Shown here: in pieces, positions 4,300 to 13,767 of the stretch
Layout: every line of letters starts with the position of its first letter
Numbering within the stretch: the first letter of the stretch is position 1
NCBI GenBank assembly: GCA_051652765.1
Contig: JBOFUV010000113.1
Location: forward strand, 1-36,912
Length of the DNA stretch: 36,912 bases
Direction: 5' to 3'
Source: Microcoleaceae cyanobacterium
GTDB lineage: Bacteria > Cyanobacteriota > Cyanobacteriia > Cyanobacteriales > Microcoleaceae
The notes under the pieces: model-generated
The model's input: the letters and a program-made list of their open reading frames with translations, nothing else
Database searches by the model: none
What the model was told of the DNA's origin: nothing
Made by a program: the position numbers and the translations under genes

Positions 4300-6195
4300 A
4301 TGAGTCCGCACCCCGCAAAGCCGGAACTGATTAGCACTCTAGATGTGCGTGGACATCCGCCCCGAATTTGTATTTTGGGTGGGGGTTTTGCCGGACTTTT
4401 CACTGCCTTGGAATTAAGTAAACAACTGAGCAAACAATCCTGGCGGGACGACCAAAAACCTCAAGTTACTCTAGTTAATAGTGAGTCTCGATTTTTATTC
4501 ACCCCATTTTTGTACGAACTCATCACTTCAGAATTGAAAACTTGGGAAGTGGCTCCAGCATTTGAAAAGTTGCTGGCTTACACTGATGTGCGATTTCATC
4601 AAGGAACAGTTCAGAGTGTCGATTTAAACCATCGTCAAGTTCACCTGCATTCTAGAGACGTTCTCGCCTACGATTATTTGGTGTTGGCAGTTGGGCGCGA
4701 GATGCGAGCTTGGGGCGAACTGGAAGAGGTCTCTAGACCTTCACTGTCCATTCGTGGATTTCGAACCTTGGCCGATGCTGAGTGGCTCCAGGAGAAACTT
4801 CAGGCGCTAGAAGCTTCAGATAGTTCCCTGATTCGGGTAGCGATTGTGGGAGGGGGACCAAACGGCGTGGAGCTAGCGGGCAAGCTAGCGGATCGGCTGG
4901 GAAAACGCGGGCAAATCCATCTGATCGTTCGGGGTTCACAGATTCTTAAGGACTTTACCCAATTTACCCGTCGTGTTGCTGACCAATCCCTAGTTCGACG
5001 GGGTGTGCAGTTAAGATTCCAGACCACAGTTGCTGCCGTAGGCGAAAATAGCATTACGCTTCGTTTTCAGAAAAACGCTCAGAATCAACTCACAGAACAA
5101 CCCCAAGAACAATCAGAAGAATTACCTGTGGACTTGGTGATTGGAACGGTCGGAACCCAGGCGAGGGACTGGATCACGCATCTGGAATGTCAGCACGATG
5201 CCATGAATCAATTGCTCACCCATCCAACTCTCCAGCTTGTGGATTATCCAGAGGTCTTTGCCGTAGGAGATTTGGCGGACATTCGCAACCATCGTGGCCA
5301 AAAAATCCCAGCTACGGCTCAAGCAGCGTTCCAACAGGGGAGCGCTGTTGCTAGAAACCTAATGGCACTTCTGCGAGGTCAATCTCTGCAACACTTTCAC
5401 TACCTGCATTTAGGAGAAATGCTCACCCTTGGAACTCAGGATGCGATCGTCGTTAGCTTCAGAATTTGCCTGCGGGGCAGACTGGCGTGTTTGGCAAGAC
5501 ATTGGATTTATATTCTGCTGCGAATGCCCACGTTGCATCATCGGGTACAGGTCACTCGATCGCGACTTCAAGTCCAAATGCAACTCCAATTTCAGTCATT
5601 ATTTCGGTTTTTTGGATTTAATAATTACAACGAATCTAACAGCTTTAACGGATCTACAAATTCCAATCATTCTGAAAGTAACCTACCCCAAAAAGTTATG
5701 ACGAATTCGTCTATGCATCAATCTCAATTTAGAGGGTTATCCGGTTTGATTTTAACAGTTCTAGTGACTCAATTGATGCTGGCATTTCGACTGCTTTGCT
5801 TGCCCAGTGCAATTTCAGCCCTGCCTAAATCTTTAAACTTGGCTTGTGATCCGATTCTCTATCCATTCTTATCCTATGCGATGTATTCCTATCCCAGATA
5901 TCCTGGACAAAAACTTGCTGACCATCAACTATTTGGAATCTTAGTGGATGGGACAGAGATTCCGGTAACTGAAAAGGAACTCGGAATTGGGTTGTACAAA
6001 TTTAAAAAAGCCTATATGAAGCCCATTCGAGAGGGAAAATCAGAAGCAATTCAGTCTTTATTTGAATTGTATCAACAAAACAATCGGCAGAAATTAGTGC
6101 ATTTAGTGTTGAAGTCCTATCCCGTTACGATTACAAAATCAGGGATTCAGCAGCGACCCATGGAAACAAGAATCATTCCAATTCAACCACTGTAG
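4300..6195 (+). CDS. Type II NAD(P)H:quinone oxidoreductase (NdbB/NDC1-like) fused to a C-terminal ~165-aa membrane-anchored domain
   Basis: RICILGGGFAGLFTAL, FLFTPFLYEL...WEVAP, VAIVGGGPNGVELAG, VFAVGD, PATAQAAFQQ and LGEMLTLG motifs; then an N/S-rich linker, a TM helix and a YPFLSYAMYS motif. Confidence 0.85.
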   Translation: MSPHPAKPELISTLDVRGHPPRICILGGGFAGLFTALELSKQLSKQSWRDDQKPQVTLVNSESRFLFTPFLYELITSELKTWEVAPAFEKLLAYTDVRFHQGTVQSVDLNHRQVHLHSRDVLAYDYLVLAVGREMRAWGELEEVSRPSLSIRGFRTLADAEWLQEKLQALEASDSSLIRVAIVGGGPNGVELAGKLADRLGKRGQIHLIVRGSQILKDFTQFTRRVADQSLVRRGVQLRFQTTVAAVGENSITLRFQKNAQNQLTEQPQEQSEELPVDLVIGTVGTQARDWITHLECQHDAMNQLLTHPTLQLVDYPEVFAVGDLADIRNHRGQKIPATAQAAFQQGSAVARNLMALLRGQSLQHFHYLHLGEMLTLGTQDAIVVSFRICLRGRLACLARHWIYILLRMPTLHHRVQVTRSRLQVQMQLQFQSLFRFFGFNNYNESNSFNGSTNSNHSESNLPQKVMTNSSMHQSQFRGLSGLILTVLVTQLMLAFRLLCLPSAISALPKSLNLACDPILYPFLSYAMYSYPRYPGQKLADHQLFGILVDGTEIPVTEKELGIGLYKFKKAYMKPIREGKSEAIQSLFELYQQNNRQKLVHLVLKSYPVTITKSGIQQRPMETRIIPIQPL

Positions 6196-6272
6196 TGTTC
6201 CCCACAAATCCACTGCTCAAGTTTAGAAGAATCAATTCAGAATTGTTTGGAACATAATTAGGAGAATTGTTA

Positions 6273-7643
6273 ATGCAGCTACAAGCAACTCAAAATATCT
6301 GGATTCAGCGCTGGCAGGAGTATTGGTTTGCGCCTTCTCCCCTATTTGACTTGGCAATTTGTCGAATTGTTGTTGTTTTGTTTCAGGTCACTTATTTTTT
6401 TCGGTACGAGACACATGCGAAAGTGCTGGATTTATCAGCAACTTCAGAGGAGTTGTATGATCCATTGCCTCCGGTTCGGGCTTTAACCTTTTTCTTTGGC
6501 TTTGATAACCCTCCACCCAACGAATTTTTGAGTTTAATTTTTTGGGTAACTCTGATTTCTGGATTATCTGCTTTAGTTGGACTTCAAACTCGCTTGAGCC
6601 TGATCATTTTTGCAATTGGCAATCTTTTTATCCAGTCCTTTTTGTATTCTTTTGGTGAACATCATCATCCCCAAGGCTTGATTCTGATTACCTTTTTTCT
6701 ATTGGCCTTTAGTCCAGCAGGCAAAGTATTGTCCGCAGATGATTTAATCCAACGGCTGCGGCAGAACATTCGACGTAGAAAATTTACAGCCTTCAGCTTA
6801 GTTGATGAATACAGTGAATTTGCAAAATGGTCACTGCGTTTGGTGCAATGCTTGCTCGCGCTTGCTTACTTGAGTGCAGCGGTCAGTAAAATAGCAGCAG
6901 GGGGTCTAGACTGGATGAACGGTTACACCTTGCAATTCTACCTTCTCGCCGACGGATTTCTCTGGGATCGACCTTTGGGGATTTTCCTGTCTCAGAACCA
7001 TTTTCTCTGTGTCATCTTCTCTTGGATGGCCATAATTTTTGAGGGAACATTTTTCTTAGTCTTAATTTTTCCAAGATTAGTCTGGCTCTACATTCCTGCA
7101 GGAACCTCCTTTCACATCGGCATTTATCTAGCGCAATGGGCACCCTTTTTTCAGTTTGTCACCTTGTATTGTGTATTTTTACCTTGGGCAGCACTAGTGA
7201 AAATCCTGTCTCGCCGTTTGTGGCGCTACCGAACTGATCAGAAACCCGAAGTTCTATTTGATGGTGAGTGTCCGCTATGTATTGGTTGCATGACTGTGGT
7301 GTGTTACTTGGACTGGTTCCAGTGGATCACCTACAGTGACCTGCAATCCCGCTGGCCAGAACTGGTAGAAACCCATCCTGAAATTTCCTTGAAAGCCTGT
7401 CTAGGGGAAATGCATCTGATTTTGCCGAACAATGGGGTGCGACGAGGGTTTTTTGCCTTTCGGAATATAGTTTGCTATCTGCCTGCCCTGTGGCCACTTT
7501 GGCCCATTTTGTATTTCCCTGGTATGTCCTACCTGGGCGATCGCACATACCGCTTTGTGGCTGCTCACCGTCCCCGCTTTGTACAAAGTTGTAGTTCCGG
7601 CGCTTGTTCAATTGGTACGGATCGAGACATCAAAAGGCTTTGA
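6273..7643 (+). CDS. HTTM-domain (vitamin K-dependent gamma-carboxylase-like) membrane protein fused to a DCC1-like (DUF393) thiol-disulfide oxidoreductase
   Basis: Multi-TM; LAICRI, SFGEHHH, LSAD, YLSAAVSKI...DWMNG, FEGTF and FHIGI motifs; C-terminal VLFDGECPLC (DxxCxxC); AGGAG at 6260-6264 precedes ATG 6273. Confidence 0.85.
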   Translation: MQLQATQNIWIQRWQEYWFAPSPLFDLAICRIVVVLFQVTYFFRYETHAKVLDLSATSEELYDPLPPVRALTFFFGFDNPPPNEFLSLIFWVTLISGLSALVGLQTRLSLIIFAIGNLFIQSFLYSFGEHHHPQGLILITFFLLAFSPAGKVLSADDLIQRLRQNIRRRKFTAFSLVDEYSEFAKWSLRLVQCLLALAYLSAAVSKIAAGGLDWMNGYTLQFYLLADGFLWDRPLGIFLSQNHFLCVIFSWMAIIFEGTFFLVLIFPRLVWLYIPAGTSFHIGIYLAQWAPFFQFVTLYCVFLPWAALVKILSRRLWRYRTDQKPEVLFDGECPLCIGCMTVVCYLDWFQWITYSDLQSRWPELVETHPEISLKACLGEMHLILPNNGVRRGFFAFRNIVCYLPALWPLWPILYFPGMSYLGDRTYRFVAAHRPRFVQSCSSGACSIGTDRDIKRL

Positions 7644-12345: not shown

Positions 12346-13767
12346 ATGGCAGTTGAGTATGACATTGTGATTATCGGTGGCGGATCGGGAGGGCTTGTGG
12401 TTGCCAGTGCCGCAGCTCAACTAAAAGCAAAAGTAGCCTTAGTGGAGCGAGATCGCCTCGGGGGAGATTGCCTCTGGTTTGGCTGTGTTCCCAGTAAATC
12501 TCTGATTCATGCCTCACGGATTGCCCACGAAGTCAAAAACGCCGCTCGATTTGGGATTTACATCGATAGTCCTAAAATTAATTTTGCTGAGGCCACAGGC
12601 CATGTGCAGCAAGTGATTAAGACGATTGAACCCCATGATTCCCCTGAACGCTTCCGAGGACTGGGAGTCGATGTGGTGTTTGGAGAGGGGAAATTTATTG
12701 ATCGCCATACTTTTGAGGTCAATGGACGACAGTTAAGGGCCAGAAATTTTGTGATCTCTACGGGTTCACGTCCGGCAATTCCATCAATTTCCGGTTTAAA
12801 AGAAGCTGGATTTCTAACCAATGAAAAGGTGTTTTCTTTACAAGAATGCCCTAATTCTCTCGCTGTAATTGGCGGTGGGCCAATTGGTTGTGAACTGGGT
12901 CAAGCCTTTTCTCGTTTAGGCGCAACCGTTAGTATTTTTGACAGTGGAACTCATATTTTAGGCAAAGAAGATCCAGAGGCAGCCCAGGTTATTCAAGATC
13001 AACTGATAGCTGAAGGTATTCAAATTTTCACCGGTTCAAGAGTTGAAAAAATTGAAATTAAGCAGGGTAAAAAACACATTACTTCAGGACAACAAATCGT
13101 AATTACAGATGAGATTTTGGTTGCCTCTGGACGACTGCCCAATGTGGAATCATTGAATCTAGAAATAGCTGGAGTTGAAATCGGTAAACAAGGTATTAAA
13201 GTCAATGCCAAACTACAAACAACCAATCCTCGAATCTATGCTTGCGGAGATGTAATTGGGGGCTATCAGTTTACTCACGTTGCAGGATATGAGGCTGTTG
13301 TGGTACTCACAAATGCCCTATTTTTTCCCGTGAGTAAAGCAAATTATCGCGTGATTCCTTGGGCAACTTTTACTGATCCTGAATTAGCCAGAGTTGGATT
13401 GACAGAGGCTCAGGCTAGAGAGCGATATGGTGAGGATATTTATGTTCTAAAGCAGCCCTTTGCTGGGGTCGATCGAGCCCAAGCAGAAGCATCAACCCTG
13501 GGATTTGGTAAGATTATCACACGAGGCAATGGAGAAATTTTAGGCGCACATCTAGTTGGCTCTTCAGCAGGAGAATTAATCCATGAAGTTGTACTAGCCA
13601 TGGCCAATAATCTTAAGGTTTCTGCCTTAACTGGAATTCATATTTACCCAACACTGTCTGAAGTGAACAGCAAAGCCGGATTACTTTTGAAAAAACAAAA
13701 GTTTGCTAATAATCAGTGGCAGCAGAACTTTCTAGAAAAATTCTTTAACTGGCGGCGATCACTATAG
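12346..13767 (+). CDS. Class I pyridine nucleotide-disulfide oxidoreductase (mercuric reductase/dihydrolipoamide dehydrogenase-like)
   Basis: IIGGGSGG, GGDCLWFGCVPSK redox disulfide, VIGGGPIGCELGQ, IYACGD, HIYPTLSE; no HMA domain or C-terminal Cys-Cys. Confidence 0.9.
   Translation: MAVEYDIVIIGGGSGGLVVASAAAQLKAKVALVERDRLGGDCLWFGCVPSKSLIHASRIAHEVKNAARFGIYIDSPKINFAEATGHVQQVIKTIEPHDSPERFRGLGVDVVFGEGKFIDRHTFEVNGRQLRARNFVISTGSRPAIPSISGLKEAGFLTNEKVFSLQECPNSLAVIGGGPIGCELGQAFSRLGATVSIFDSGTHILGKEDPEAAQVIQDQLIAEGIQIFTGSRVEKIEIKQGKKHITSGQQIVITDEILVASGRLPNVESLNLEIAGVEIGKQGIKVNAKLQTTNPRIYACGDVIGGYQFTHVAGYEAVVVLTNALFFPVSKANYRVIPWATFTDPELARVGLTEAQARERYGEDIYVLKQPFAGVDRAQAEASTLGFGKIITRGNGEILGAHLVGSSAGELIHEVVLAMANNLKVSALTGIHIYPTLSEVNSKAGLLLKKQKFANNQWQQNFLEKFFNWRRSL

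Follow-up and report, generated by a model that had tools for sequence, protein, structure and literature searches.

The window analysed here, a stretch of 36,912 nucleotides from a Microcoleaceae cyanobacterium (contig JBOFUV010000113.1, assembly GCA_051652765.1), carries on its forward strand two co-oriented open reading frames (ORFs) that an earlier note on this DNA had described as lying 77 bp apart. Both are present, and the distance holds when it is counted to the ATG at 6273, which is served by the ribosome-binding site AGGAG at 6260-6264. ORF A (4300-6195, 631 amino acids) encodes an accessory NdbB-like type II NADH dehydrogenase (NDH-2) running in frame into the gene for an HTTM partner protein, and all the sequence motifs quoted in the note are found in its translation. 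ORF B (6273-7643, 456 amino acids) consists of an HTTM domain, the membrane core of the vitamin K-dependent carboxylase GGCX, and a DCC1-like domain at 7251-7607, both recognised by Pfam above the cut-off (E 7.5e-12 and 1.2e-15, respectively), and the CxxC reported for the second gene is the motif CPLC at 7269-7280. The question addressed is whether the reductase could supply quinol to a GGCX-like enzyme composed of the HTTM-DCC1 protein and its partner.

The reductase domain of ORF A spans residues 22-425 (4363-5574), with a Pyr_redox_2 match over residues 22-347 (E 4.6e-36), and its best solved relatives are NDH-2 enzymes. It is a flavoprotein with two Rossmann folds and the NDH-2 motifs, namely GGGFAG for binding of flavin adenine dinucleotide (4378-4395), GGGPNG of the second Rossmann fold (4849-4866) and AQAAFQQ (5317-5337). 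In three trees the housekeeping and accessory NdbB-like proteins together separate from other NDH-2s with supports of 96/98, 98/96 and 94/89, which agrees with the earlier placement of the window reductase in the NdbB/NDC1 group; the name NdbB is anchored indirectly, by a housekeeping member that UniRef calls demethylphylloquinone reductase, with slr1743 and NDC1 (AT5G08740) themselves lying outside the trees, and the trees contain long branches. A separate housekeeping ndbB, which the note had proposed to look for, is indeed present in the same genome (G000:C43) and is 47% identical to the window reductase; all five genomes checked carry such a copy, at 47-49% identity. The housekeeping copies, that of the window genome among them, form a clade supported at 100/100, and the window copy falls outside it and within a clade of HTTM-linked copies supported at 100/98. 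Judged by sequence, the window reductase is an extra NdbB-like paralogue, neither the housekeeping orthologue nor NdbB itself. The acidic residue of the second Rossmann strand is lost throughout the window-type clade and is replaced by V210-R211 in ORF A (4927-4932). Loss of this residue is commonly taken as a switch to NADPH, an argument given little weight here, since the accessible part of PMC12223511 already counts NdbB among the NADPH enzymes. Three short insertions, at 4420-4445, 4710-4750 and 5075-5120, set the window reductase apart from its relatives; one is a repeated SKQL and the other two are loops rich in Q, E and S, and together with the long branch of the protein they possibly reflect relaxed selection.

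The distribution of the extra copy across the phylum provides evidence for a functional link. Among 401 genomes (377 at least 90% complete), a profile of the linked reductases applied at a threshold of E 1e-100 matched 152, of which 32 had two matches and 120 had one. An HTTM-DCC1 protein is encoded in 27 of the 32 two-copy genomes versus 2 of the 120 single-copy genomes, and in one of the latter two the gene holds five stops. The Fisher p value of this association, 1e-22, is overstated since related genomes are not independent; when the 11 genomes that seeded the profiles are removed, the counts become 16/21 versus 2/120, and the nine genera that hold both states (g1, g3, g21, g35, g46, g47, g52, g58 and g63) all agree with the trend. 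In 21 of the 27 genomes the HTTM-DCC1 protein is of an approximately 600-620-residue type with a fused C-terminal domain (one of them partial), which is the most frequent neighbour of the reductase, and in the other six it is of the window type or a 648-residue single-chain type. In 15 two-copy genomes out of 32 the HTTM unit immediately follows the extra reductase, and these cases span all three architectures, which have the Lys and Trp positions and the DCC1 domain in common, but not the His pair. The link predicts a second reductase copy also in genomes whose window-type HTTM gene lacks an adjacent reductase, and this was borne out in all five such genomes searched; in each, the gene immediately downstream of the second copy matches the profile of the ~620-residue HTTM type. 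For these counts 3-4 candidates were scored per genome, the window-type HTTM search used a slightly different genome sample, and the named loci (L) and genomes (G) are overlapping collections whose counts are not additive; a genome search with the Pfam HTTM model matched 14 of 401 genomes, missing known positives, and serves as a weak check only. The survey of neighbourhoods suggested in the note has thus found the linkage to recur across cyanobacterial families, which is the new and testable part of the present finding, while the fusion itself was not met elsewhere (0/80 loci). Among the loci with an adjacent reductase, all those named are cyanobacterial. Taken together, the co-occurrence and adjacency suggest that the carboxylase-like enzyme receives its reduced vitamin from the additional reductase.

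The resemblance of the HTTM protein to GGCX, as claimed earlier, is borne out by its predicted structure (predicted local distance difference test score, pLDDT, of 95). In a Foldseek search with this model ranks 1-16 are all GGCX, 14 of them at E < 0.001, and VIA-align superimposes it on GGCX with Z 13.2 and a root-mean-square deviation of 3.4 over 209 aligned residues, versus Z 8.5 for the next match. The structural identity is about 17%, and searches of the PDB by sequence with the protein or its profiles returned nothing significant. Residues were mapped by way of a homologous bacterial single chain, which matches GGCX at E 2.5e-32 (profile match 87%), and direct alignment places K206, W214 and E257 at K218, W223 and D263 of GGCX, respectively. 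The first two (6888-6914) are conserved in all 120 homologues and E257 (7041-7043) in 115. The pair H131-H132 (6663-6668), conserved in 115 and 119 homologues, corresponds to N159/H160 within one residue, and F292-F293 (7146-7151; F292 in 119) corresponds, again within one residue, to F299 of the CO2 pocket. The functions of the matched GGCX residues, such as that of K218 as the catalytic base, are those given in the available portion of PMC12647623. On this model the HTTM protein adopts the fold of GGCX and shares its catalytic Lys, Trp, acidic, His and Phe positions. The helix count and the positive-inside bias would place the active site, with the His pair and K206, outside the cell and the DCC1 domain in the cytoplasm. 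Single-chain proteins of ~445 residues resembling GGCX are encoded behind three lipoprotein-like genes at L288-L290 (genomes G063, G106 and G091; family f43), the one at L289 matching human GGCX at E 2.5e-32.

The DCC1-like domain, with its CPLC motif and a C-terminal Cys pair at 7590-7592 and 7605-7607, had been proposed as a thiol relay. It is missing from 14 of the 120 homologues, the CxxC cysteines are present in 84 and 92 of the 120, and at L157 and L171 DCC1 is also found as a separate neighbouring gene. Because some family members lack the domain or its cysteines, and because it probably lies on the face of the membrane opposite to the active site, the relay is unsupported.

The C-terminal part of ORF A appears to be the HTTM partner. 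Beyond the reductase domain follow an N/S-rich linker of about 40 codons, a single transmembrane helix (about 5719-5784), the motif YPFLSYAMYS (YPFLSYAMY at 5860-5886) and an alpha/beta domain, a tail without Pfam match; from its own conserved ATG the partner occupies 5698-6195 (165 amino acids). Of 95 loci (19 from genomes and 76 from metagenomes) 80 have the partner directly upstream of HTTM, and the remaining 15 start no more than 200 bases from the edge of the locus, so that adjacency is 80/80 where room exists. The predicted partner-HTTM complex scored 0.84, the best of three controls scoring 0.00, and passes a mark that is reached by 116 of 157 solved pairs and 2 of 215 mismatched pairs; at least 95% of the contacts are common to the runs, and the partner pLDDT is at least 77. 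In the model the transmembrane helix of the partner packs into the HTTM bundle, and partner residues 52-69, which hold YPFLSYAMY, form an interface with HTTM residues 132, 206 and 214. The partner is thus predicted to bind the HTTM protein near the active-site region, in keeping with the earlier assignment of this domain as an HTTM partner. Searches of Pfam, NCBIfam and known folds gave no match for it (best Z 4.5), its profile is not significantly related to the GGCX-like or the ~620-residue types, and in the Atlas it falls in unnamed clusters only. At E 0.1 none of 129 partner members matched DUF5819, a model that was used without a positive control. The likeness of YPFLSYAMY to the Y395/M401/M402 segment of GGCX is a resemblance by eye only, profile and fold searches showing no similarity.

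Several other loci illustrate how these components can be combined. At L126 (4848-6794, reverse strand) a 648-residue single chain, directly downstream of an accessory reductase, consists of HTTM, DCC1, a transmembrane helix and a partner-like domain that carries the motif AWPFSCYPKF and, in a search of five sequences, matched the partner profile at E 0.0005; here enzyme and partner appear to be naturally fused in the opposite order. At L142 (431-8291) there follow in a row a reductase, a 623-residue HTTM-DCC1 protein, a GT-C gene, the partner, a window-type HTTM-DCC1 protein and a GT2 gene.

The in-frame joining of reductase and partner in ORF A was originally read as a Rosetta-stone fusion, an interpretation that is not supported. 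The fused form was found in the window genome only, the partner being joined to a reductase in none of the 80 partner-bearing loci; a word-limited search of proteins 347-1105 amino acids long, scored on the partner region, gave one match in 499 candidates, the window's own protein, and the best 150 of the 410 representatives matched by the partner profile all stand alone, at 103-234 amino acids. Homologous reductases end about 45-60 bp upstream of the partner ATG. The linker (5578-5697) is 55% identical in DNA to the corresponding region of G002, from the same genus, and contains a 2-nt indel, versus 75-76% identity in the flanking coding parts; in G002 the reductase stop is at the usual distance and the partner ATG is shared with the window. 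The linker therefore appears to evolve like a spacer and probably represents the old NDH-2 tail plus the intergenic spacer, with an out-of-frame TAA TAA still visible at 5619-5624. The simplest reading of the fusion is a recent frameshift-type read-through in the window lineage; an assembly error is a further possibility, no sequencing run being listed for the genome. A homopolymer error, with the T run preceding TAA TAA one base too short, is disfavoured, as G002 has no indel there. A singleton whose linker resembles a former spacer, the fusion is not a conserved Rosetta stone, and selection for it is unsupported; it is topologically harmless, dispensable and incidental.

The genomic context of the pair bears on its possible substrate. 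In the window the flanking genes encode a GNAT protein, an SLH-GHL10 protein and a pseudouridine synthase, and no co-oriented precursor-like ORF is present in the gaps flanking the pair; scans for promoters and terminators gave results at chance level. The protein or peptide substrate suggested earlier is not favoured, no precursor having been seen and glycan genes being the commonest neighbours. A cell-envelope glycan or glycoconjugate would be preferred instead, though weakly, from these neighbours, from the lack of a visible precursor and from the cassette of the ~620-residue HTTM type. This cassette (L246, L270-L275; split forms at L245, L247-L249, L251-L255, L262 and L264) comprises an acyl-AMP ligase, an acyl-CoA dehydrogenase, what we take to be an acyl carrier protein (ACP), an MBOAT protein, an unannotated protein of ~320 residues that is presumably SGNH-like (neither label is a Pfam match), an accessory NdbB-like reductase and a ~600-residue HTTM-DCC1 protein, and looks like a lipid-acylation and HTTM pathway of the envelope. 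The ~620-residue HTTM cassette often occurs with GT-C genes, and among the loci of the conserved cassette GT-C genes follow in one case. A genome search of the window organism found no acyl-CoA dehydrogenase, SGNH-like or 620-residue HTTM gene of this cassette, and no other HTTM or partner gene outside the window pair. The genome does encode menB and a cyanobacterial-type menA; it also contains two VKOR-family genes (G000:C27:28987-29397 and G000:C3:26982-27425), and the window a further Pyr_redox_2 flavoprotein of 473 amino acids at 12346-13767 on the forward strand, which is not NdbB-like. At L031-L035 and L044 a 322-residue short-chain dehydrogenase, probably a lineage-specific neighbour, lies downstream of the trio; adh_short is the only match observed, and we take the protein to be a light-dependent protochlorophyllide reductase.

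These observations are most simply combined in a three-part, quinol-fed unit that would modify the cell envelope, consisting of the accessory NDH-2 and a split GGCX-like enzyme formed by the HTTM-DCC1 protein and its partner, a model derived from sequence comparison, structure prediction and analogy to which we assign a probability of roughly one half. In this model the extra flavoprotein, located by homology on the cytoplasmic face of the membrane, would reduce phylloquinone, or a naphthoquinone akin to it, at the expense of NAD(P)H. The HTTM-DCC1 protein, with the GGCX fold, and the membrane-anchored partner, bound to it as modelled, would form the split enzyme with an active site at the outer face. 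By analogy with GGCX, K206 would deprotonate the quinol, O2 would add, and the strong base so formed would take a proton from an acidic substrate, which would then be carboxylated; the substrate might be an envelope glycan or glycoconjugate. Both quinol use and carboxylation by the HTTM unit are thus extrapolated from GGCX. The bulk quinone pool of cyanobacteria is plastoquinone, which is one reason why a dedicated reductase would be needed. Another is that the housekeeping NdbB is concentrated on lipid droplets, where, according to the accessible part of PMC12223511, it makes up about 24% of the protein in Synechocystis. The most specific form of the model, in which the dedicated NdbB paralogue provides phylloquinol, outside photosystem I, for the carboxylation of a glycan or glycoconjugate of the cell surface by split GGCX-like enzymes, is possible, but can be put forward only tentatively.

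A number of observations weigh against the quinol-fed unit. The reductase is adjacent in just 10 of the 41 loci with room for it, and in 12 genomes the extra reductase stands beside MBOAT and/or SGNH-like genes with the HTTM gene elsewhere (the distant HTTM loci of nine of them were viewed). In G002 the HTTM and partner genes are intact and the reductase is reduced to a remnant, and G259 has an HTTM gene and one reductase copy. Conversely, no HTTM or partner gene was found in five two-copy genomes, G010, G081 and three of genus g26. The accessory copies form a single clade with a support of 26 in one tree and are paraphyletic in another. On the side of the enzyme, profile and fold searches detected no similarity between the partner and the lumenal region of GGCX-like proteins, and the predicted complex may have passed through likeness to solved GGCX. 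Concerning the chemistry, the available part of PMC13452876 states that neither bacteria nor plants contain naphthoquinone epoxides. As for the substrate, a glycosyltransferase, GT-C, flippase or polysaccharide deacetylase gene occurs within the two nearest genes on either side at 14 of 28 loci, which favours a glycan, but this count stands without background control, and no glycosyltransferase adjoins the pair in the window; the count covers de-duplicated loci with upstream room, L141 being represented by the near-identical L142 and ORFs of more than 700 amino acids skipped. The second copies in g26 (L307-L309) constitute a separate basal NdbB-like lineage beside an ATP-binding cassette transporter gene, and their 1.5-kb flanks contain no HTTM gene. 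Interrupted genes are also seen, with stops in the reductases at L032 and L043 and in the HTTM-DCC1 genes at L039, L037 and L047, and the 620-residue HTTM gene of G339 (L300) is degraded.

Of the competing explanations, the one that survives best retains the same wiring but assumes a different chemistry, in which the quinol-dependent carbanion is resolved by elimination, epimerisation or oxidation, or a benzoquinol such as plastoquinol is used. In its favour, the linaridin HTTM protein LinG is implicated together with LinL and LinE, in the portions available of the two linaridin papers cited below, in threonine dehydration by an unclear mechanism, the His pair through which GGCX binds the substrate carboxylate is missing from the ~620-residue HTTM type, and no epoxide reductase is evident. 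However, the window-type family keeps the positions matching N159/H160 and F299 almost invariantly, and the sole characterised bacterial homologue cited in the sources at hand, MloH, is a carboxylase; a different chemistry is rather unlikely, if still worth serious consideration. Less probable is that the reductase and HTTM protein are fellow members of an envelope-modification cassette between which no quinol is passed, the reductase serving the acyl-CoA dehydrogenase or redox balance. This would account for the reductase remaining beside MBOAT/SGNH genes in the 12 genomes after HTTM had moved, for the loss of the reductase but not of HTTM in G002, and for the decay of several copies. It fits poorly with the window genome, which has the trio without the dehydrogenase, the SGNH-like gene or the 620-residue HTTM gene, with six genomes (G031, G371, G443, G444, G445 and G194) in which the reductase is directly upstream of HTTM and no MBOAT or SGNH gene is present in the DNA examined, and with the retention of an HTTM gene in all 12 split genomes. 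The strict version, a selected fusion with a complete vitamin K cycle, a DCC1 thiol relay (for example in epoxide recycling) and protein glutamate carboxylation, draws on the in-frame and topologically sensible fusion, the DCC1 domain on all three reductase-linked HTTM types and the two VKOR homologues, but is very improbable given a fusion found once with a spacer-like linker, the patchy and apparently misplaced DCC1, and the lack of a propeptide-binding domain or of a nearby precursor gene.

If the quinol-fed unit is correct, phylloquinone would have a second job in cyanobacteria, in parallel to the FSP1-GGCX link of animals, and the second NdbB-like gene in 32 of the 152 sampled NdbB-bearing genomes, about one in five, would be explained. 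For most bacterial HTTM proteins the cofactor and substrate are unknown, and a reductase paralogue that tracks HTTM genes is genomic evidence for quinol consumption by such proteins; the link also points to a handful of genes with which reconstitution could begin. Should carboxylation hold as well, the system would be a bacterial counterpart of FSP1-GGCX with γ-carboxyglutamate (Gla)-type chemistry on a non-peptide substrate, and vitamin K epoxide would be formed in organisms thought to have none.

Comparison with known systems helps to delimit what is new. Human GGCX (PDB 9BUM, 9L6Q and 9WFC; PMC12647623, as far as its accessible text goes) shares with ORF B the HTTM fold and the positions of K218, W223, D263, N159/H160 and F299. 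FSP1, described in the accessible parts of PMC9929328 and PMC9402432 as the warfarin-resistant vitamin K reductase, makes an NDH-2-family reductase a candidate quinol source here too. Unlike GGCX, the window enzyme is in two chains, without the large lumenal clamp or the propeptide-binding domain, carries an additional DCC1 domain and has a physically linked reductase gene; the 456-residue chain ends in DCC1 and the partner has 165 residues, in place of a single chain with a clamp. In the proposed scheme the window unit works like the reductase and carboxylase arm of the vitamin K system, while by architecture it is not a member of the GGCX family. NdbB (slr1743) and NDC1, which according to the available part of PMC13452876 reduce demethylphylloquinone before methylation, belong to the same NDH-2 subgroup as the window reductase by tree and motifs; the accessory paralogue differs from the housekeeping clade by its 44-50% identity, its altered second Rossmann strand and its linkage to HTTM genes, NdbB being near-universal instead. 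For the chemistry the model is MloH from the malonomycin pathway (Law et al. 2018), a bacterial vitamin K-dependent HTTM carboxylase known here through citing papers, which describe a single chain acting on Asp in a polyketide synthase/non-ribosomal peptide synthetase intermediate; no such cluster is present in the window. The linaridin LinG/LinL/LinE system (PMC9927463; 10.1101/2020.07.09.196543) likewise combines an HTTM protein and a partner without known function, whereas at the window pair there is no LinE hydrolase or precursor, and DCC1 and NDH-2 are present. A further parallel is the Melghirimyces pair of a DUF5819 protein and HTTM-DCC1, which in the accessible text of the preprint (bioRxiv 10.64898/2026.08.19.745780) is proposed to be a split GGCX-like complex and was co-folded with menaquinol. 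It too consists of adjacent genes for a membrane-anchored partner and an HTTM-DCC1 protein of ~450 residues with a predicted complex, and has the conserved Lys, Trp and Phe in common with the window pair; in contrast, the window partner has no DUF5819 match, and that text mentions no linked reductase. The literature search, which left most subscription papers outside its reach, found no report that connects an NDH-2 with an HTTM gene. Split HTTM pairs are thus already in print, and it is the link to a reductase that is new.

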